From NCBI GenBank assembly GCA_038217285.1, contig JBBQPO010000050.1:1-27085 (forward strand): 27,085 bases of DNA, read 5' to 3'. Shown here piece after piece: positions 4,649-26,162 of this stretch. The notes under the pieces are model-generated. The model was not told where the DNA came from, did no database searches, and saw nothing but the letters and a program-made list of their open reading frames with translations. The DNA is from Chthonomonadales bacterium. Its GTDB lineage: Bacteria; Armatimonadota; Chthonomonadetes; Chthonomonadales; Chthonomonadaceae. Each line of letters begins with the position of its first letter. The first letter of the stretch is position 1. The position numbers and the translations under genes are program-made.

Positions 4649-6190
4649 TCAGGGCGCGACGAATGTCTGAAGCGGACTGACGCTGAAAGCGGAAGCCACA
4701 CTGTCCTGCGCCAGGACTGCCCAGAAGTAGGTATGCCCGGACACCAAAGCCGGACCGGCATAGATGCCGGAGGTAGACGAGAAGTCCGCGTTCCAGACAG
4801 GAGCGACGCCATTCGGGTCGGTATCGGACTGCAGCGCGGGGAACTGATCGTAAACGAGCACCTTGTAGAGTGTCGCGCGATTGACGGTGTTCCAGCGGAA
4901 CGTCGGCGTGGCGGAGGTCACGCTGGCGCTCGCAGGCGACACCAACGACTGGGGGCCGAGTGGTTGGACGGTGACCGGCGGCTGTACGGGGGGGCTGATA
5001 CCGCCGCCATTCGACGGGAAGTTGATCGTGTCCAAGCGGGAGATGCTGTAGTAGTAGAGGTGATCCGGTGTCAGCAGTGAGTCGTTGTCCGCAAAACGAT
5101 CTGCCAGCGGATCCCTCAAGGTAGCGATGGAGACGAAGTTGGCCGGGCTGATTGTCGTGGCCCGCACAATGTCGTAGCCATACAGGTTGTCCAGTTGCTG
5201 ATAGTCCCAGAACAGATCGGTTTCGATGAGGCTTCCCGACGGCGTATCGCGCGTCAGGCTGCGATGCAAGACGATCTTCTGCGCTGCCGCAGAATGGTGG
5301 GCCAGCAGGGCGCGCTTCTTCAGGACGATCTGGCTTATTACGTTCATAAATCCGGCTGTGTCTCCGGCGGCGCGGGTTGGGTTGAGCGGCGCCGTGATCG
5401 TCGTCGCGGCCAGGCCATCCGGGGCCGGGACGGTCGATGTACCACTGCTGGTAGTCAACGTCAGCGTCACCTGGGTCGAACTGGACGGCAGTACGGAGAT
5501 ATTGCTGAGTGTCTGGTTTATCAGCCCGACGCGCGAGGCCGAGATGGTATAGGAGTTCCCAGGCGGCAGGCTTGGCAGGGTGAAACCGCCATCAGAGCGG
5601 GTGGTCGTGTTGAACGAAGCCAGGTTGTTGAAGTACTGCTGCGCAGGCGCGCCGGAAGGGGCGAAGGGGCCGACGTTGGCGAATACGCGGGCTTCGGCCA
5701 GACGGTTGCCGGTCTGGTCCACCACGACACCGATGATGGAGCCCTGGGTATTCGTCGGCGACAGGACGATCTGAACGTCGTGGGTGATCGGGTCGCTGGA
5801 GAGCACTTCGACCTGGTTCTGGCCGCTGTAGGCGACACCTTTGATCGTCGCGGTGGCGACCACTGTGCTGACCAGCGAGGTCTGACCAGCCGGAACGACG
5901 ACGTTCGGAATGATGTAGGAGCCGTACTGGGTCGATGCGGCCGTTTGCGAACCGAAACGAATCATCGCACCAACGACAGGCGCATTGTTCATGTCGGTGA
6001 CGGTGCCGTTGATCTCACTGACAAAGGTAGGCGGCGGCGGCCCCTGGTGATTCGAGTTGCTGCCGCCTCCGCCACAGCCTGCAAGGGCGACGAGGCCGAG
6101 CAGAGCCAGACATGGCAGCAGGATGATCGAAACACGGTAGGACCGAGTGGCCTGCGCTGAGGAGCGCGGTGGGTTGGCTGCAGATGCGAT
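4649..6190 (-). CDS. Lipoprotein with carboxypeptidase-regulatory-like and fibronectin-III-like domains (~513 aa; putative ATC start)
   Basis: The track ORF (ATG 5992) stays open upstream to TAA at 6215-6217. The extension encodes RSYRVSIILLPCLALLGLVALAG-C-GGGGSN, a lipoprotein signal with Gly tether. It contains no in-frame ATG/GTG/TTG, and GGGAGGAGG lies 8 nt before an in-frame ATC at 6190. Confidence 0.75.
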   Translation of the reverse strand: MASAANPPRSSAQATRSYRVSIILLPCLALLGLVALAGCGGGGSNSNHQGPPPPTFVSEINGTVTDMNNAPVVGAMIRFGSQTAASTQYGSYIIPNVVVPAGQTSLVSTVVATATIKGVAYSGQNQVEVLSSDPITHDVQIVLSPTNTQGSIIGVVVDQTGNRLAEARVFANVGPFAPSGAPAQQYFNNLASFNTTTRSDGGFTLPSLPPGNSYTISASRVGLINQTLSNISVLPSSSTQVTLTLTTSSGTSTVPAPDGLAATTITAPLNPTRAAGDTAGFMNVISQIVLKKRALLAHHSAAAQKIVLHRSLTRDTPSGSLIETDLFWDYQQLDNLYGYDIVRATTISPANFVSIATLRDPLADRFADNDSLLTPDHLYYYSISRLDTINFPSNGGGISPPVQPPVTVQPLGPQSLVSPASASVTSATPTFRWNTVNRATLYKVLVYDQFPALQSDTDPNGVAPVWNADFSSTSGIYAGPALVSGHTYFWAVLAQDSVASAFSVSPLQTFVAP

Positions 6191-6322
6191 GGGGGTATCC
6201 TCCTCCCGAAAAATTTAAGAAGCGTAACACAATACCGCTTACTGTACGCTCTCTCGCTGAAAACGTCGGCGTTCCCAGTTCGTGACACCGAGCAGGGGGA
6301 GGTTCGGTTGCAGAACAGTCCT

Positions 6323-6331
6323 ATTTTACCA
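6323..6331 (-). promoter_or_regulatory. Possible extended -10 promoter for the lipoprotein gene
   Basis: Minus strand TG-G-TAAAAT in the intergenic region; no good -35. Confidence 0.35.
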
Positions 6332-6424
6332 CAACTCGTGTGAATTTCAGGTCGGCGCTCGTGGTTTGTCCGTTCGGGAGGAGCCACGGCGGGGAATCGT
6401 AACACGTTGTAAATATCGGCAGAA

Positions 6425-6817
6425 CTATCCGACTTGGCCGGGCCGCTCCAACAGAGCCGTGCGGACACGGTCTTCCAGAGTGTCCAGTCCAAAAGGTTTT
6501 ACGAGGATACCGGCGACACCGAGGCGTGCCACCGGAACGCTTACCGTCGGCCGGTCATCGGTAGACATCAACAGCAAGGCTGCATCCGGACAGAGGGTGC
6601 GGAGACGGGGTAAAAACGTGTCGGAGTCGCGGATTCGCAGGTCCCACAACAGAATATCGAAGGGCTGCTGAAGCGCGAAACGGTACGCATCCGAACCGGT
6701 CGAAGCGCAGACCACGCGAAACCGACCTTCCTTGGTAAGTTTTGCCTCGAAGACCCGACAGATAGTTGGCTCTGCGTCCACAACCAGTACGGAGAACGGA
6801 GCAGGGGTGTCTTGCAT
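6425..6817 (-). CDS. Single-domain response regulator (CheY-like receiver), 130 aa
   Basis: ATG 6817 with GGAAGG upstream. Motifs VLVVDAE, LLWD (phospho-Asp position), LMST and LVKPF. No output domain. Confidence 0.85.
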   Translation of the reverse strand: MQDTPAPFSVLVVDAEPTICRVFEAKLTKEGRFRVVCASTGSDAYRFALQQPFDILLWDLRIRDSDTFLPRLRTLCPDAALLLMSTDDRPTVSVPVARLGVAGILVKPFGLDTLEDRVRTALLERPGQVG

Positions 6818-6891
6818 GGCTAGAACCTTCCGCATGAAACGGCGAACTGTACGGCGACCGTACAGGGACAAGTTGGCTTGGTTGTTTCTAT

Positions 6892-6907
6892 TGCAACTTT
6901 TGTGCCA
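6892..6907 (-). promoter_or_regulatory. sigma54 (RpoN) -24/-12 promoter
   Basis: Minus strand TGGCAC-AAAAG-TTGCA is an exact match to TGGCAC-N5-TTGCW. It is intergenic and oriented toward the receiver gene. Confidence 0.85.
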
Positions 6908-6972
6908 AGTGGTTGACTGCGGTCTTCTGCGCGAAATTACAGAAGAAAGCCGTGTTCCGGAAGGGGCTTCAT

Positions 6973-8175
6973 TTACAGAGCGAGATGGAGGGTGTGTGGG
7001 AGCAGGTCCGGTGTGAGCACCCTGGCCTCGCGGTCCGCAAGCACGACGGCTCGCTCCATCGCGTTCTCCAGCTCACGGACATTGCCAGGCCAGACATAAC
7101 GTTTCAGCAACTCCATCGCATCGGGGCTTACTTGCGATAGTTTTCGATTGTTCTGCCGGTTGAATTTGGCGAGGAAATGCTCCACCAGTGTAGGGATATC
7201 GTCGGTGCGTTCGCGCAGGGGCGGGAGCGTGATGGTCACGATATTGAGGCGATAGTAGAGGTCGGTTCGGAACTTTTCGTCGGCAACGGCCTTTTCGAGG
7301 TTCTTATTGGTCGCTGCGATGAGCCGGACATCCACTTTCAGGCTTTTCGTGCCTCCGATCCGTTCGAACTCCCACTCCTGCAGAACGCGAAGCAGTTTGA
7401 TCTGAACGGTGGTGGGAATGTCGCCGATCTCGTCGAGAAACAGCGTGCCTTGATTCGCCAGTTCGAAACGGCCCGGTTTGGCGGCGACGGCTCCGGTAAA
7501 CGCGTTCTTCTCATGGCCGAATAGCTCACTCTCCAGAAGGGTCTCCGGTAAGGCGGCGCAAGAGACGGGAACGAAAGGCTTGTTGGCCCGCCCGCTCTGG
7601 GTATGGAGCGCCCGGGCGATCAGCTCCTTGCCGGTACCGCTTTCGCCCCGAATCAACACCGTCGCCCGCGTTTCTGCCACCCGTTCCACGATCCGGTAGA
7701 CCTCTCGCATTTTGTCGCTCACGCAGTCCAGGATCATGGATGTCTGGGTTGCTTTGCCTGTTCCAGTCTTCGGCGCCGGCACATCCGAAATCTTGTCGCG
7801 ATGCGCGATGGCCTGTTTGAGAACGACGCGGACTTCGTCGATATCGAAGGGTTTCGAGAGATAGGTAAACGCGCCGTAACGCATCGCCTCGACTGCCGAC
7901 TTGATGGTTCCGTACGCGGTGACGATGATCGCGGCGCAGTTCGGGTGAATCTCCTTGACGCGCTTCAACAACTCCACCCCGTTCATGTCCGGCATGATCA
8001 GGTCGGATACGAGCACATCGACCGTGTTGGAGGCGGCGATGTCGAGGGCGCGTTTGCCGTTCTCGGCCGTGAGAACGGTATAACCCTCTTTTGTCAGCAT
8101 CGCCTCAAAGACGCGCCGGATATTGGGCTCATCATCGGCAACGAGGATCGTCTGTGTTTTGGTCGGTTGGGTCAA
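6973..8175 (-). CDS. NtrC-family sigma54-dependent response regulator (REC + AAA+, no C-terminal HTH), ~400 aa
   Basis: TTG start at 8175 after GAGGAG. REC motifs ADDE, SDLIMP, KPFD. AAA+ motifs: Walker [24 protein letters not shown], Walker [26 protein letters not shown]. The protein ends at [10 protein letters not shown]. Confidence 0.95.
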
Positions 8176-8203: not shown

Positions 8204-10807
8204 CTAACTATCCGGGAAGGGACCAGTCAGGCTGGAACTGATGAGCGGCGAATCTCCACCCGACTGTTCGGTAAACTCGGGCGGGGGCCGCAACGGCAAG
8301 ACGATACGAAAACAGGTGCCGACGCCGCTCTTGCTTTCGACGTCCACTCTGCCTCCGTGTCCGGTAACGATCTTCTGCACGATTGAAAGGCCAAGTCCGG
8401 TGCCCTTGGGTTTCGTGGTCACAAAAGGGCGAAAAATCCGCTCTCGCTCCTCCTCCTCGATGCCGACTCCGGTATCGCGGAAGGTCAGGATGACCATTTC
8501 GGAGGGAGCGTCGTACTCCGCGCCCAGGTGCAGGTTCCCGCCTTCCGGCATGGACTGCGCCGCATTCATGACGACGTTGCGCACGACCTGGCCCAACTGC
8601 ACCGGATCCGCTTCGATGTCGGGAATGTCTCCGGCTACCTGCCAACGCACGACCACCCGATGTTCCGTCAGGAATGCCGAGAGCGCCTGGACGGCGGTCG
8701 TGAGGAACTCTCGAATGTTCACCGGACGCGGATCGAGTGGAATCGGGCGCGCGAAGTCCAGCATGGCGCTCGTCAGGCGACTCAGTCCATCCACTTCGGA
8801 GACGATGATATCGGGCCACTCCGTGGAAACACCTTGCGTCTCGAGTTCCAGACGGATGATCTGCGCGGCCCCTTTGATCGGGGAGAGGGCGTTGCGCACC
8901 TCATGGGCCATCTTTGCCGCTAGTTGCCCGATATCGGCTAGACGCCGCATCCGCTCCAACTCCGCCTGCATGCGAACCTGCTGCGTCACATCCTCGAGCA
9001 TCATGACGATTCCGGAGCGTTCTCGTCCATGTTCCCCTAACCGGAACAGCTTCAGGATCAGGCTGCGCGGCGCGCCATGTTTTGGGCGCAGCGTCAGCTC
9101 GTGTATCAACACCCGTTCCCCAGTTTCGGGCAGCCGCGCGACCATCTCCAGCAGGTGGTCGCGTTCCGTTGGGGAGACGCACATCTGCTGTACCACTTCG
9201 GTGAGCGTAATGTTGCGAAAGAACGCGGTGGGCTGCTCCAGAATCGCGGCTGCAGCGCGGTTCCAGCGGGCGACATGACCGCGCGCATCCGTCGAGAGGA
9301 TACCATCGCCGATAGACTGCAGGACGTTGTCCATGTAGTCGGTAAGGCGTTGCGTTTTCTCGTGTAGACGGGCATTCTCGATGGCGAGGCCCGCCTGACT
9401 GACAAAAGCCGTCAATAGTCGCGTCTGCTCGTCGCGGAGGGTCCGACCCCGGCTCTTATTGTCCGCGACCACCACTCCCACACAGTCGTTCTTACTGGTC
9501 AAAATCGGGATAGCGACAAAACTATCGGTGCCGAGTGAACGCGCGAAGCCGAGCATCTGAAGGTATTCACGGCCGCCTGCTTCCTCTGCGGGGCGGTCCT
9601 CACGGGCATCGAAATGGCGCAGTACCTTGCCTCGCGCTGTCGCGCCGATGGCGCTGTCACGGTCACGGATCGGGTTCCGCCCGATAGCGTCGTGATACCC
9701 ACGCCAGACTCGCGCGATAAAGGTCATTCCGGTTTGTTCGCGCAGATAGAGGCAACAGCGTTCGAACCCCACTGTGTCGCAGATGTCGTCGGCCACCCGC
9801 TCCAGCAGTTCATCGAGATTGATGGAGATCAGTGTCCGGGAGAGGGTCGAAATCTTGAACAACTCGTTGGCACGTCGGTTCAGGTCGTCGTACAGTCGTT
9901 TGTTGGTCAACGTGAGCGCCGCCTGATTCGCAAAGACACTGAACAGTTTCAGATCGCTGTCGGTAAAATCGGGCGCGGCGCGCCGACGAGAAATCGAGAG
10001 GACGCCCTGCACCCGGCCATCCTGACTTTTCATCGGGACGAAGAGCGAAGAACCAGGCTCTGACGCCCGGTCCACGGCCGCAGTTCGGAGCTCCTGGGAG
10101 CCGCCTACGAAAATGAGGGGCTGCTCGCTGCTCACGACCCTTTCCGCGATCTGCTGGGCCTGCGCCGCGATCGCCTCCTCCGTCCCGTACCTCGCGGCGA
10201 CGGAAAGGAGTTCGCTTCCAACATTTTGCAGCCAGGTGCAACAGGTTTCGGCATCCATAAGTTGGGCCGCTCGGTCCGTAAGAACCTGAAGCAGCTTGTC
10301 GTGTTCGATCTTATCGATCGCCTGCCCGATTTCATAGATGGCGGCGACTTCGCCGATACGCTGATGCGCCCGGTCTTCGGCGGCGTCGATTCGTTCGGCG
10401 AGTTCGTCCCGGCTGAGCCGTAGACAGATCTGCGCGGTGACCGCGTCCAACAGTTCTTGCGTAACGTCTGTCTGCTCGGCGAACACGTAGCAGAGGCGGC
10501 CGGTCGGAACGTTCGCGCCCACCAGCGGGCAGTTAAACTCGCGGCGACCTTCCGCCCCCAGCTTCGACAGGGCGGAGACATCACCGTAAGGCATCAGTTT
10601 CCGCGCCGAGCCGGAGACGACTTCCAGGGCGAGGGCGAGCGCGGCGGCATGATGCTTCAGGATGCGGAACAGTCCTTCGAGTGCGTCCCCATTGGTTGGT
10701 GCGTTGGCTATCCAGGGAACGGCCTCCAGGAGGAGGCGGAGACTCGATGGTGGGGCGGCGTTCTCTACCGTGAGCGAAGGCCGACCGAATGGCACACCAG
10801 ACGTCAT
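8204..10807 (-). CDS. Cytoplasmic multi-GAF/PAS sensor histidine kinase, 867 aa
   Basis: ATG 10807 with GGGAGG SD. GAF signatures ([36 protein letters not shown]), PAS ([17 protein letters not shown]), H-box MAHEVRN, N-box [26 protein letters not shown]. No obvious TM helix. Confidence 0.93.
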
Positions 10808-20933: not shown

Positions 20934-23291
20934 CTATTTTGCTGCTGCCGTGATACCCTGCGGTTTTTTCTTTTTCTCGAACGTCATCACGACCGCGTCG
21001 TCTGATGTCGTGAAGTCGCGGCCGTGCAGAGTGCCGTGGATACGGATCGTATCGCAGAGCAGCCTGGCTGTCCCATTCGCGAGCTCCATCTCCCACGTTC
21101 CGGCAATCATGTCCACGGTGAGCAGGGGATCGCCAAGCGGCATCGGCTTGCCGTTCACGCGCTGGGCTCCGATCCAGACCTTGGTCGGGGAGAGGCTGCT
21201 GCTGCCGAAGGTCCAGACTGGGCCGGTTCCAGGCGTGGTTAGCTGCCAGGGCGCGGGCGCATCTTTCGGGGCGCGTTCCAGCAGTTCGTCGGAGTTCTCG
21301 GCGCGAGTTACCATTTTGACGATACGGTGTTTGGAACGCGACAGCGGCAGACCATCGAGCGAATAGGCGATGATCGTGGCGAAACGGTTGGGAGTGGAGA
21401 CGTGGAGGCACCCGATCTCATAGAGATGTCCCGGCTCCAGTTCTCCGGAAAGAATGGCCAGGGTCGGTGTGCTGACTTCCAGCCGACCCTCGTGGTCGTA
21501 GCGGGTGATCTGGCCGGTATCGCTGCGCCAGATGCCTGTCGCTAACGATTTCTCGCTGATCGGCAATCCCCGTTTGCCATAGTAGTTCAGCAGATCGCGT
21601 AGAGACTGCACATCGGCAAGGGTGCCGGTAGGTGTCTGCGCCGAGGCGTCCGCGCGCGCGCCTGCCAGCACACTCCTCACGCCGACGGACCAGGAGGCGC
21701 GATGGAGTTCGCTCAGGTGCGAGGGCCAGTCGTAGAGACGCGACGGGGGATAGACAAGCGTTGCCGAATGGTCGGCGGAGCGTATAGAATGGCTGAGAAA
21801 CGCCTGACCTGCGATCGCATGCAGTCCCCAGACCGTCGGATCCGCCTGAAACGCGTAGTCGTTCAGGGCATCGGCCTCGGCTCCGTTTGGAGCGCGATTG
21901 GTCTGGTAGCCGAAGAGCAGCACGGCATCGAAGTCCTGCAACGAGGCATACGCCAGCATCTCGGCCTCGCTGACGGCACGGTAGCGGTTCGGCCAGATCG
22001 TTCCCCACTCGCGAATGACGACCGGCTTACTGTTCCAGCGGAGATTGGCGGTAAACGGCGCGACTCCGAAGGGACCGTCCTCCCGCAGCGGATTGCGATT
22101 GCTGTAGAAGCGCATGCCGGGCGATCTGGGATCGTCCTTGATCGTATCGCCGTACCAGTTTTCCGCCGTGAAGTCGCACTCTTGCGCCACAGACCAGACG
22201 TCCGGAGCCACATCGTTCGAGACGACGGCGGTCACCGGAATCTTCAGGCCCAGGGAGTGCAGGTGATCGCGCATGGTGCGAAGATAGGCGCGCTGCAGTT
22301 CGGTAAGGAACTGCACTCCGTCGTGGAGGCGAAGCGGAGCGCGGCGTATGTCGGCGGCAGCGGGATCGACCGCGGCATAGGATCTTGTCAGCACGGGCAG
22401 ATCCACGCTCAGATGTTCGGGGTCTTCCTCATCGCGCAGCACCGTAAAGCCGTTTACGTCGCCCCAGGCCGCCTGGAGCTTTTCGCGGGTTCCATAGTGA
22501 TCGCGCAGCCATCGATTCCAGCGGTTCCGGAGATCGGAGCGGTATGGCTCGACCAGCGTCTCCAGCTTTTCCGGATAGAGGAAAAAACCGTGTTCGTTAC
22601 AGATCTCGACCATGGCGAGCGCCGGGTCGTCGACAGGAGCAAGGCCGGAGTACGGGTTACGATGCATCAGGAGACGCGTCGCATAGTCCTTCTGTAACTG
22701 GATAAGATAGTCGTCGTAGAGGGCGTACGGGCGTGCGCCACGATCCATCGCATCTGCGTTAAGGACGTTGTCGCCGGATTTGAATGTGCGGAAGTCGAGC
22801 AGATCGAGGTAGTAGTAGATGCCATGACGCCGTAGCGAGTCCATCCAATGGTCGAGCCGGTCCAGATAACGCCGGTCGAAGTGAAGGGAGTCGGGCGCAT
22901 CTACCTTGCCGAGCAAGCAGTTACGGTTGTCGATCGCTTCCAGTCGGACCATGTTCAGTCCGGCGCGGGCGAAGTTATCGACGATCGTTTCGATCTGTTC
23001 CGGTGGAATATCAAGTCGCGTGGAGGAGACATTGATGCCCCAGAAGCGCGCCCGTTTGCCGTCCGCGAAATAGAAATGCCCGTTGTCGCTTGTCGTCACA
23101 AAGCCGTGTCGGCCGGCAGGCACATCGAGGGTGCCGCGCAGGTCAAGCTGGCTTGACGGTGGAAAGGAGAAGTCGCTGCGCCCACGGCTCGGCCCATCGG
23201 CGCGGGCAGAGGGTAGGGGAGCGAATGCAATCAGAGTAAAGATAAGAGCAGACGTGCGGCACAGAGCTGTGACAGAGATAGTAGCAAGCAA
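20934..23291 (-). CDS. Secreted clan GH-A glycoside hydrolase (GH5-like, with a GH42-like segment), ~785 aa
   Basis: Probable TTG start at 23291 (GAGGA upstream) with signal peptide ...PSARA. Motifs RFWGIN, GLNMVRL, GIYYYLDL, NPYSG...DDPALAMVEICNE (acid/base) and PVVIREW (nucleophile). Confidence 0.75.
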   Translation of the reverse strand: MLATISVTALCRTSALIFTLIAFAPLPSARADGPSRGRSDFSFPPSSQLDLRGTLDVPAGRHGFVTTSDNGHFYFADGKRARFWGINVSSTRLDIPPEQIETIVDNFARAGLNMVRLEAIDNRNCLLGKVDAPDSLHFDRRYLDRLDHWMDSLRRHGIYYYLDLLDFRTFKSGDNVLNADAMDRGARPYALYDDYLIQLQKDYATRLLMHRNPYSGLAPVDDPALAMVEICNEHGFFLYPEKLETLVEPYRSDLRNRWNRWLRDHYGTREKLQAAWGDVNGFTVLRDEEDPEHLSVDLPVLTRSYAAVDPAAADIRRAPLRLHDGVQFLTELQRAYLRTMRDHLHSLGLKIPVTAVVSNDVAPDVWSVAQECDFTAENWYGDTIKDDPRSPGMRFYSNRNPLREDGPFGVAPFTANLRWNSKPVVIREWGTIWPNRYRAVSEAEMLAYASLQDFDAVLLFGYQTNRAPNGAEADALNDYAFQADPTVWGLHAIAGQAFLSHSIRSADHSATLVYPPSRLYDWPSHLSELHRASWSVGVRSVLAGARADASAQTPTGTLADVQSLRDLLNYYGKRGLPISEKSLATGIWRSDTGQITRYDHEGRLEVSTPTLAILSGELEPGHLYEIGCLHVSTPNRFATIIAYSLDGLPLSRSKHRIVKMVTRAENSDELLERAPKDAPAPWQLTTPGTGPVWTFGSSSLSPTKVWIGAQRVNGKPMPLGDPLLTVDMIAGTWEMELANGTARLLCDTIRIHGTLHGRDFTTSDDAVVMTFEKKKKPQGITAAAK

Positions 23292-23328
23292 ACGATTATC
23301 CTCATAACTAGTGGGTTTATCTCTTCTT

Positions 23329-24495
23329 CTACGCAACGCAGACCTTTTGTTCAGCATCGAATCGGTCCAGGCGGAAACGAGAGAGATCGTAGGGCACGGC
23401 ACGATCCGTTACCAGAGCGCTTGCGATCTCACCGAGCAGGGGCGTAAACTTGAAGCCGTGCCCGGAACAGGCGCTGATGAAGGTAACGGCAGGCAGACCC
23501 GGCACGGTGTCGATGACGAAGTCGGCGTCGGGCGTGTTCGAGTAGAGACAGACCTTTGCGTAGACCACACGGTCGCTGAGCCCGTCGAAGCGACGGTGCG
23601 CATAGCGTCGGACGGTGTCGATGTCCGTCTCCGTGACGCCGCGATTCACGGCCTCCGGCGTGGTCGTCTCGCCGCTATCATGCAGCGCCAGTTTGACGCC
23701 CTCCTCCAGGCCCCTGCCAAGGTGCGGAAAACCGTAGGTGTTGGCCACGGCATCGATCCAGACCGGAAGACGGCCTACTTCAAAGTTTTCCGGATGCCGA
23801 TCAGGTTCCAGATGCACATAGGGCTGCCGCGTCACGACCAGCGGAATATGGACGCCCAGCGAGGCCAGCAGCGGCTGCGTCCAGGGGCCGGCAGCGATCA
23901 ACAGGCGATCCGCGCGAAACATCGCTCCGCTCTCTGTGGTGGCGACGACGCCCGCGCCGTCCGCCTCGATACCGGCGACTGTGGTCTCTTCGTGGATCTG
24001 GGCTCCCAGATTCCGTGCAATTTTGACTGCGGTTCGGACGCAACGCGAGGCGTAGGCGAATCCCATGCCCGGCTCGTGGAGAGCGATTTCGTCGGCGTCC
24101 AGACGGAGGGCCGGGAAGTGGCGGGCACGGTCCTGGGGCTTCCAGACCTGATAGGGAAGGTGGTTTGCCTCCAGAGCGGCCCGAGCGGCGGCGATCTGCG
24201 GATGCTTCTGCGGCCCGAAGAAGATTCCGCCACATCGGTTTATGAGCGGCCCTTCCATGCCGTGCCGTGCCGCGAGACCTTCCAGTTCGGACCAGAGTGC
24301 GTAGGAGTCGGTCATGAGCGATGTATAGAGCGGATCCGGGTAGATGCTGCGCACGATGCGGCTATCGCCGAAGGAGCTGCCCTGGTCGTGATCCACGCGA
24401 AATCGTTCGAGCGCTATGACCTCGTGTCCGTCCCGGGCAAGACGCCAGGCAGCCATCGCTCCGACGCCTCCGACACCGACGATCAGCACACGCAC
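23329..24495 (-). CDS. solA: N-methyl-L-tryptophan oxidase / monomeric sarcosine oxidase family flavoprotein
   Basis: GTG start at 24495 after GGGAGG. GVGGVG Rossmann motif, HDQGSSFGDSRIVR, CLYSNTPD (flavinylated Cys position), ACSGHGFKF. Confidence 0.88.
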   Translation of the reverse strand: MRVLIVGVGGVGAMAAWRLARDGHEVIALERFRVDHDQGSSFGDSRIVRSIYPDPLYTSLMTDSYALWSELEGLAARHGMEGPLINRCGGIFFGPQKHPQIAAARAALEANHLPYQVWKPQDRARHFPALRLDADEIALHEPGMGFAYASRCVRTAVKIARNLGAQIHEETTVAGIEADGAGVVATTESGAMFRADRLLIAAGPWTQPLLASLGVHIPLVVTRQPYVHLEPDRHPENFEVGRLPVWIDAVANTYGFPHLGRGLEEGVKLALHDSGETTTPEAVNRGVTETDIDTVRRYAHRRFDGLSDRVVYAKVCLYSNTPDADFVIDTVPGLPAVTFISACSGHGFKFTPLLGEIASALVTDRAVPYDLSRFRLDRFDAEQKVCVA

Positions 24496-24505
24496 GTGAC
24501 CCTCC

Positions 24506-25396
24506 CTATAGATCTCGCTCGACGATGTAGCGGGCGATCGCACGAAGCGGCTCGGCCCGGTCGTCGAAATTCGCGAGCGTATGCAGGGCAGCCTCCACTT
24601 CGGCGTGGGCGCGGCGGCGCGACTCTTCCAGTCCGTAGAGTTTGGGATAGGTCGCCTTGTCGCGCTCTTCGTCGCTGCCGACAGGTTTGCCGATCTTGGC
24701 CTCGTCTCCCGTCACATCGAGAATGTCGTCTGCGATCTGGAAGGCGAGACCGATGTGCGCGCCGTAGGAACGCAAGGCTTCCACCTGGGCGGAGGTCGCT
24801 CCGGCGAGCATCGCTCCGGCCAGCACGGAGGCGGTCAGCAAGGCTCCGGTCTTATGGGCATGGATGTATTGAAGCGTCTCGGTCGTGACTTCCTGCCCTT
24901 GCGACTCCATATCGACGACCTGTCCGCCGACCATCCCCCAGGTGCCCGAGGCCTCCGCGATCAGACGCAGGGTGGGCAGCACGCGCTCGGCGGAAACGGT
25001 GGCGACGTTCTCGGCAATCAGTTGGAAAGCGAGAGCGAGCAGGGCGTCTCCGGCCAGCAGGGCCATGGCATCGCCATAGACCTTATGATTGGTCAGACGC
25101 CCGCGTCGGTAGTCGTCGTTGTCCATGCAGGGCAGGTCGTCGTGTATCAGGCTGAAGACATGGATGCATTCCAGGGCGCAGGCGGTCGGCATGACATCCT
25201 CATCGGCCCCACCGACGGCCTCAGCGGCGGCCAGTGTCAGCGTCGGGCGCAGGCGCTTACCGGGGGAGAGGACGCTATAACGGAGGGAACTGTGGAGCGT
25301 ATGTGGGCGGGCGTCCGTGGGCGGCAGATAGCGGTGGAGAGCCGCCTCGATACGGGATCGGCGCTCTTCCAGATAGGCTTTCAGGTCAAAAGTCAA
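24506..25396 (-). CDS. ispA: Polyprenyl (farnesyl/geranylgeranyl) diphosphate synthase
   Basis: GKRLRP, FARM DDLPCMDNDDYRRG, GMVGGQVVD, KTGAL, SARM FQIADDILD, GKPVGSD...KATY. TTG start with GGGAG upstream. Confidence 0.93.
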   Translation of the reverse strand: MTFDLKAYLEERRSRIEAALHRYLPPTDARPHTLHSSLRYSVLSPGKRLRPTLTLAAAEAVGGADEDVMPTACALECIHVFSLIHDDLPCMDNDDYRRGRLTNHKVYGDAMALLAGDALLALAFQLIAENVATVSAERVLPTLRLIAEASGTWGMVGGQVVDMESQGQEVTTETLQYIHAHKTGALLTASVLAGAMLAGATSAQVEALRSYGAHIGLAFQIADDILDVTGDEAKIGKPVGSDEERDKATYPKLYGLEESRRRAHAEVEAALHTLANFDDRAEPLRAIARYIVERDL

Positions 25397-26039
25397 CGTT
25401 GTCTCCCACCGGCGCGGTCAGCGTTTCGAGGACCGCCCGGACCGCCGCACAGTGCTGTTGAAAGGTAAAGGTGGCGCGCGGCGCCGCTTCCGTTGCGAAG
25501 GTCGTAGGGTCGGCAGGGATATGCAGAAATCCGGCCCGCGCCGGGTGGTTTTGCGCCTGAAGATGGTGCAGCGTCCAGTAGAGGAGATGGTTGCACAGGT
25601 AGTCGCCGGCGCTGCTCGACGCGACCACCGGCAGGTCGGCCGCTTCCAGAGCCTGCACGAGATCACCTACCGAGACGGTGACCGGTAGTGTGTCCGGAGC
25701 GTCGGCGACAATGACCTCGGTCGTCCATAAGCGATTTTCACTGTCCGCGACCGCAGTCGTGCTTTGGTTCCGACCTACGCTTTCCACGCTCCAGAAAGGC
25801 CGGTTCGACGCGACGCCCAGCATAAGGATGATGTCGAACGATGTTCCGTTCGCACCGCCGGCTTCGATGGCCTCCTGTACTATTCGGGTCGATTCTCGAA
25901 AGGAGACCGGCAGGACGCGGGTCGTGAGCGTGTGCCCTCGTACGGGATCGGCGTCGAAATGCCGCGCCAGTCGTTCCGATGGATTGCTGACAACCGATAG
26001 GAACGGTCCAAAGCCGGTTAGCAGGGTTTGCAGAACGAT
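25386..26039 (-). CDS. pcp: Pyroglutamyl-peptidase I (peptidase C15), ~217 aa; putative ATC start
   Basis: Extending the track ORF upstream in frame gives IVLQTLLTGFGPFLSVVSNPSE...LPVSF, the conserved C15 N-terminus. Catalytic triad: E (WSVE), C (AGDYLCN), H (GFLHIP). No canonical in-frame start; GGGAGG lies 8 nt before ATC 26039. Confidence 0.85.
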   Translation of the reverse strand: MVLQTLLTGFGPFLSVVSNPSERLARHFDADPVRGHTLTTRVLPVSFRESTRIVQEAIEAGGANGTSFDIILMLGVASNRPFWSVESVGRNQSTTAVADSENRLWTTEVIVADAPDTLPVTVSVGDLVQALEAADLPVVASSSAGDYLCNHLLYWTLHHLQAQNHPARAGFLHIPADPTTFATEAAPRATFTFQQHCAAVRAVLETLTAPVGDNVDF

Positions 26040-26095
26040 TGCGAAAGCCTCCCGAAGCGCAACGTAGCCACGATATGCTGTACACTTCCGGAAGT

Positions 26096-26124
26096 AGTGT
26101 ATCGCTTTCTGACGCCAGTGTCAA
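26096..26124 (-). promoter_or_regulatory. sigma70 promoter for the pcp-ispA-solA operon
   Basis: Minus strand TTGACA-N17-TACACT. Confidence 0.75.
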
Positions 26125-26162
26125 GTTAAAAGGGCCATAGGTCCAGATCGAGCAGGCGATTT

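Follow-up and report, generated by a model that had tools for sequence, protein, structure and literature searches.

Translation of infC, the gene for IF3, and of pcnB in E. coli begins at AUU; these starts are weak and are discriminated against by IF3. Here we describe a related arrangement in pcp, the gene for pyrrolidone-carboxylate peptidase (Pcp), in a soil or sediment bacterium of the Chthonomonadaceae (Armatimonadota). The gene lies in a stretch of 27,085 nucleotides (hereafter the window) of a metagenome-assembled genome, which is fragmented into 459 contigs. Like infC and pcnB of E. coli, pcp carries a near-cognate codon behind a Shine-Dalgarno (SD) sequence and has no canonical alternative. 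Unlike the E. coli cases, the ATC of pcp is not conserved but arose in one lineage on loss of a GTG, and it has no known or demonstrated regulatory logic.

The efficiency of near-cognate initiation in E. coli has been addressed by Hecht et al. (10.1101/063800); in the accessible part of that report AUA, AUC, AUU and CUG initiate at 1–2% of AUG, and a methionine N-terminus was confirmed by mass spectrometry for an AUC construct. The evolution of start codons was treated by Belinky, Rogozin and Koonin in 2017 (PMC5622118), where, as far as the available text goes, switches of the start codon and substitutions at positions −1 to −3 are coupled. The change from GTG to GTT in pcp is likewise accompanied by changes in the three bases upstream (ACT to ATC). 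The switches in that study are between AUG, GUG and UUG, however, whereas in pcp the canonical start is lost and the start would move one codon upstream to a near-cognate codon. A literature search on Armatimonadetes and start codons yielded, by title and abstract, no apparent report of non-canonical starts in the phylum.

The pcp locus, its product and its relatives

All features of the pcp locus are on the minus strand of the window. The promoter is of the sigma-70 type (26096–26124) and consists of TTGACA (26124–26119), a 17-nt spacer and TACACT (26101–26096). It has 10 of 12 consensus matches and is the sole promoter match in the region, where shuffled sequences average 0.3 matches. The SD sequence GGGAGG (26048–26053) is followed by an 8-nt spacer (ctttcgca) and three consecutive codons at which translation might begin: ATC (26037–26039), the probable present start, 8 nt after GGGAGG; GTT (26034–26036), the former GTG start with a third-position change of G to T; and CTG (26031–26033), a weaker alternative 14 nt from GGAGG. 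Read from the ATC, the coding sequence (25386–26039) comprises 217 codons and a stop codon (25388–25386), with no internal stops. According to the open reading frame listing, the frame is devoid of ATG, GTG and TTG from the TGA at 26123–26121 down to the ATG at 25823–25821, which is 72 codons after the ATC. The TGA falls within the −35 hexamer, and any start of pcp is thus confined to the short leader. An Rfam search of the whole window gave no matches and folding of the pcp leader was no more stable than that of shuffles (z = 0.63); we therefore do not propose a riboswitch or structured leader.

The final 11 nt of pcp (25386–25396) are overlapped, in a different frame, by the putative TTG start (25394–25396, minus strand) of a downstream polyprenyl synthetase gene, taken from the open reading frame listing. 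The overlap suggests translational coupling. If the two genes are coupled, weaker translation of pcp could affect the polyprenyl synthetase gene too.

The protein read from the ATC matched the Pfam family Peptidase_C15 with 127.2 bits (cut-off 22.7), covering residues 5–207 of 217 and profile positions 3–201 of 204. In a comparison with solved structures, 21 Pcp sequences were matched at E≤1e-15 (best 1.4e-24), and chain residue 2 of the best structure aligned to residue 4 counted from the ATC. The Pfam and PDB alignments together place the native N-terminus of Pcp at most 2 residues from the ATC. The N-terminal strand LLTGFGPF...NPS is present in the product only with a start at ATC, GTT or CTG, and with initiation at the ATG at 25823 the product would lack 72 N-terminal residues. 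An alignment of 11 Pcp sequences contains 39 invariant columns, including E86, C149 and H173, which we take to be the Glu-Cys-His catalytic triad; all 39 are kept here. The gene is single-copy in the genome. The coordinates, the GGGAGG-N8-ATC arrangement and the lack of ATG, GTG and TTG agree with an earlier note on this DNA, which had also placed the conserved Pcp N-terminus far upstream of the first ATG and described the promoter as intact. These observations are borne out, and no other codon of the frame makes a better start for pcp than the ATC behind GGAGG-N8.

The same layout was found in four same-genus relatives with readable DNA: the genomes G001 and G003 and two metagenome contigs, L036 and L037. 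The two contigs were obtained from a scan with a protein alignment; a scan with a single protein gave no relative. All four read GGAGG...ACT GTG CTG CAA, where the present genome has ATC GTT CTG CAA, and in L036 and L037 the GGAGG and the spacer are identical to those described above. In other genera an ATG or TTG is present at the position of the CTG, and the product begins MQTLLTGFGPF. The GTG of the genus relatives indicates that in the common ancestor of the genus translation of pcp began at a GTG, 11 nt from GGAGG. Comparison of these sequences shows that this start was lost in the present lineage by a change of GTG to GTT, with the preceding codon changing from ACT to ATC. A public protein of 216 amino acids (P0003) is identical at 199 of 216 positions (92%) and begins with V at the old GTG codon; as it keeps the GTG start, the loss in pcp is recent, that is, younger than about 8% protein divergence.

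Since the SD sequence belongs to the ancestral GTG start, it does not provide independent evidence for an ATC design. The sole new element at pcp is that the codon before the old GTG has turned into ATC, for which the chance is about 4 in 61 for an arbitrary codon. The aligned codon is ATC in none of the four same-genus relatives with readable DNA (0/4). The occurrence of three changes within 6 nt was considered as a sign of selection and rejected, as it is not unusual at the nucleotide divergence of 26–30% between this pcp and the relatives with DNA. Both promoter hexamers are kept in 6/6 genus-level sequences aligned.

The pcp promoter (CTTGACAC...TACACTACT) is nearly invariant across the genus (L002, L003, L004, L036 and L037), while the flanking leader diverges. 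This conservation is unusually strong for a housekeeping gene.

Near-cognate starts elsewhere in the genome

Three further genes have an ATC start at the spacing found in pcp. The infC gene begins GGAGG-ggtgatcc-ATC-AAC-AAG (INKDFRVNE...), with the ATC 8 nt after GGAGG on the plus strand (L035:1447–1449, equal to G000:C128:14372–14374). The aligned codon is near-cognate in 22/22 relatives of the order whose 5' end could be read (ATC in 14, ATA in 6 and ATT in 2), and several of these loci are without a canonical alternative start. The second gene is in the window itself (4649–6190, minus strand) and encodes a lipoprotein with a CarboxypepD_reg domain, read from the ATC at 6190–6188. Its SD sequence GGGAGGAGG (6199–6207, minus strand) is arranged as GGGAGGAGG-N8-ATC, and the product has a signal peptide and an LAGC lipobox. 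No canonical codon precedes the lipobox and the first ATG is at 5992. Among 22 distinct orthologous loci, the SD-defined codon was ATC, ATT or ATA in 13 (with an ATG or GTG immediately next in 3 of these), ATG or TTG in 8, and ambiguous in 1. The third gene encodes a PBP5-like D,D-carboxypeptidase (Peptidase_S11 and PBP5_C domains; L268/L217) with GGGAGG-N8-ATC before the signal peptide (G000:C205, ATC at 8741–8739, minus strand). At the same spacing, 5/5 genus members have a near-cognate codon (ATC in four, ATA in the fifth), and neither G003 nor G002 offers a canonical start that could be used instead. The comparative evidence from infC, the lipoprotein gene and the PBP5-like gene thus says that SD-N8-AUC initiation does occur in this organism. 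With pcp included, all four supported ATC starts are exactly 8 nt after GGAGG.

Two genes appear to start at other near-cognate codons. The pyruvate kinase gene pyk has a CTG (L170/L219, G000:C61, 3264–3262, minus strand) and is without a canonical start before the conserved RRTKIVCTIGP; the aligned codon is TTG in 4/4 genus relatives and in at least two other genera. For a short-chain dehydrogenase (SDR) the apparent start is an ATA on the plus strand (L177:97–99, G000:C87:18859–18861), 9 nt after GAGGAG, giving a protein that reads I-SKLQNKVAVVTGASKGIG. Its aligned codon is ATG in two family-level relatives only, G005 and G009, and no clear same-genus orthologue was found. With TTG (pyk) and ATG (SDR) in the relatives, both near-cognate starts are lineage-specific, like that of pcp. 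Overall, for a genome of about 4,600 genes, sequence comparison supports about 6–8 near-cognate starts; at least four ATC, one ATA and one or two CTG starts are supported.

Several other loci were noted in the course of the analysis. A second 477-aa form of pyruvate kinase is present on another metagenome contig (P0015). At G000:C73:14573 (minus strand) an open reading frame of 157 codons (LELLTIGYEG...) runs from a CTG 9 nt after GGAGG, with the first canonical start 24 codons later; its N-terminus presumably resembles that of DUF488-type proteins. Two 30-nt near-copies, GTACGGAGGACTCTTACCATCCTGACAGCG and GTACGGACGGCTCTTACCCTCCTGACAGCG, which start 60 nt apart and agree at 26 of 30 bases, are present at the 5' end of a lipoprotein-like gene of the FG-GAP/ASPIC type (L218:22–129, G000:C417, plus strand). 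The only canonical starts of this gene are 8–9 codons before the lipobox Cys, and an SD-N9-ATC is found upstream. Finally, a gene of the metallo-beta-lactamase fold (L163, G000:C44:3474–4217, minus strand) is interrupted by an in-frame TGA just upstream (C44:4218–4220), at the expected Cys of a C-x-C-x-x-C motif (...GVPMIGCD* AVCRS...). This TGA could be a nonsense change or a consensus error, or possibly a codon for selenocysteine.

Initiation at pcp

We consider it probable that pcp recently lost its GTG start and is now weakly initiated at the adjacent AUC. The ancestral start was the GTG 11 nt after GGAGG; it turned into GTT very recently, and ATC replaced the ACT before it. Transcription from the conserved promoter should continue, with about 45–50 nt of 5' leader on the mRNA, and GGGAGG would remain a docking site for the 30S subunit. 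Located 8 nt from it and one codon before the old start, the AUC is now the only near-cognate codon within usable reach, and fMet-tRNA at this AUC would give the full-length enzyme, one residue longer than before. The output from AUC is probably several-fold below that from GUG. We infer both the use of AUC at pcp and the compensatory nature of the change from ACT to ATC. An argument against this reading is that the near-cognate codon is not conserved at pcp, unlike in infC, the lipoprotein gene and the PBP5-like gene.

The same lack of conservation, with ATC absent from every relative examined, would fit a start-loss pseudogene, in which the change of GTG to GTT inactivated a dispensable pcp, the ATC is fortuitous and the decay is too young to show. 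A pcp gene was found in 18 of the 24 family genomes searched and not in the other 6, which indicates that it is dispensable in the family. The loss is also recent, given the GTG of the 92%-identical P0003, and near-cognate starts reach only about 1–2% of AUG in E. coli in the accessible part of the work of Hecht et al. (10.1101/063800). On the other hand, the promoter, the SD sequence, the spacer and all 217 codons are intact, with no stops or frameshifts, and every family-invariant Pcp residue is retained. The dN/dS of pcp was 0.23–0.27 on this branch versus 0.19–0.28 for the relatives, which shows no relaxation, and SD-N8-AUC is a working design elsewhere in the genome (infC, lipoprotein, PBP5-like). 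From its conserved promoter, its family-invariant residues and its dN/dS, the gene looks alive. As the loss of the start is recent, the low dN/dS argues against long-standing decay and leaves room for a fresh inactivation. Altogether we regard a pseudogene as unlikely.

Translation of pcp might instead begin at the CUG at 26033–26031. In alignments this codon falls at residue 1 of solved Pcp and at the start codon of the orthologues that begin MQTLLTGFGPF, and at least one other gene of this genome (pyk) appears to use CTG. However, its distance of 14 nt from GGAGG is poor for this organism, as SD-led ATG starts in the genome peak at 6–7 nt and drop beyond 10 nt. The CTG is moreover present in relatives that have the upstream GTG, and hence it is not a new feature. 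Initiation at CUG rather than at AUC is very unlikely on these grounds.

An error in the consensus, or a minor strain variant, would have the same appearance if the true sequence were GTG at 26036–26034. The contig depth is only about 6–8, the genome is in 459 contigs and the 92%-identical relative has GTG. Against this, Logan contigs of run X1 match positions 25115–26130 and 6140–7422 with 0 differences, so that two assemblers agree over 1 kb around the start; X1 may be the source sample, the agreement does not come from independent reads, and minor variants would be lost in assembly. Runs X2–X4 contain only small shares, and a contig from run X4, about 95% identical, spans 23025–26126 with 162 differences. 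The relatives differ at three of the six bases, not at one, and the changes of TTG to CTG in pyk and of ATG to ATA in SDR would need separate errors exactly on start codons. We therefore give little credence to an error or variant at pcp.

Genome-wide use of AUC and annotation of N-termini

The occurrence of SD sequences before near-cognate codons was assessed over the whole genome, using a self-trained coding model that comprised 4,859 genes, of which 4,577 had a known upstream stop. For in-frame ATC codons that precede the first canonical start by 5 codons or more, GGAGG was found at 5–10 nt for 8/783 (1.02%) versus 651/66,766 (0.98%) for all codons, and thus there was no excess; at a control spacing the same ATC set gave 5. 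Over all start-region codons an SD sequence preceded ATC in 45/4,129 cases versus about 49 expected, and near the coding onset in 4/257 versus a background of 0.85%. No genome-wide excess of SD-led ATC, ATT or ATA was seen. For CTG there was a slight SD excess, with 18 at start-like spacing versus 9 at control spacing. After background correction the SD-led starts were about 71% ATG, 17% GTG and 11% TTG.

As tests of SD enrichment are weak for a handful of genes, a screen by homology was added. Of the 8 sites with GGAGG and ATC, four were supported (infC, lipoprotein, PBP5-like and pcp). The site in C402 was rejected, since relatives show an aligned TTG as the start. The remaining sites are a second one in the PBP5-like gene, one in C12 with a negative coding score and one in C417 in a paralogue-rich family. 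In a Pfam census, 77 genes had a coding signal at least 20 codons before the first canonical start, and in 13 of these a domain started upstream of it. Three of the 13 had a clean near-cognate start (pcp ATC, pyk CTG and SDR ATA), four looked like remnants of broken genes, one had an in-frame TGA and five could not be assigned.

The components of the initiation machinery are ordinary. IF3 differs from the same-genus IF3 at about one residue, and at no position does it depart from a residue that 14 or more of the 17 other sequences share. In the initiator tRNA three G:C pairs adjoin the anticodon loop and position 1:72 is unpaired, and the 3' end of the 16S rRNA is canonical (GGATCACCTCCTTTCT). 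Throughout the order infC retains a start of the near-cognate kind (ATC, ATA or ATT), which, on the E. coli paradigm, suggests that IF3 still discriminates against such codons.

Routine AUC initiation through relaxed, SD-driven start selection, which could be argued from the two ATC cases within one 27-kb window, from the near-cognate starts supported elsewhere in the genome and from the lineage-specific nature of three of them (pcp, pyk and SDR), is the least credible of the readings, given the lack of SD excess before ATC, the one false site among the eight, the ordinary IF3, tRNA-fMet and 16S 3' end, and the persistent near-cognate start of infC. The earlier note had raised routine initiation on the basis of pcp and the ATC at 6190. 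The case at 6190 is real and conserved, and its geometry is shared by infC and the PBP5-like gene, but pcp does not count as an independent second instance, its SD sequence being inherited from the GTG start and its ATC the result of a recent, lineage-specific loss. The unusual residues that were to be looked for in IF3 and tRNA-fMet were not seen. From the choice offered there between relaxed start selection and an IF3-tuned set of genes, the first part is not supported, while a small IF3-tuned set stays plausible.

In its specific form, this proposal would have the Chthonomonadaceae keep a small set of genes whose output tracks IF3 activity through an ATC, ATT or ATA exactly 8 nt after GGAGG, with pcp joining the set by a compensatory one-codon migration of the start (ACT GTG to ATC GTT). 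The set may include infC, the CarboxypepD_reg lipoprotein gene and the PBP5-type D,D-carboxypeptidase gene. We put this forward as a speculative and rather improbable extension of the reading in which pcp is now initiated at the AUC next to its lost GTG.

Standard gene callers accept only ATG, GTG and TTG. The practical point of the analysis is one of annotation, in that N-termini are truncated at near-cognate starts, as the earlier note had anticipated. The exact truncated products are in the public protein collection for 4/4 proteins looked up. The public call for Pcp starts at the ATG at 25821–25823 and has 145 amino acids instead of the full length of 217, with loss of the 72 N-terminal residues. 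The lipoprotein is called with 447 instead of 513 amino acids and has lost its signal peptide and lipobox, while pyruvate kinase (477 instead of 504) and IF3 (167, from a downstream ATG, instead of 176) have lost their N-termini.

The biological point is modest, and no new initiation mechanism and no relaxed decoding system are indicated. The conserved ATC, ATT and ATA starts described here are added for envelope-protein genes of a little-studied phylum. In pcp the turnover of a start codon is seen at a stage that can be dated, with the canonical start lost and the near-cognate codon immediately upstream of it at the better SD spacing.
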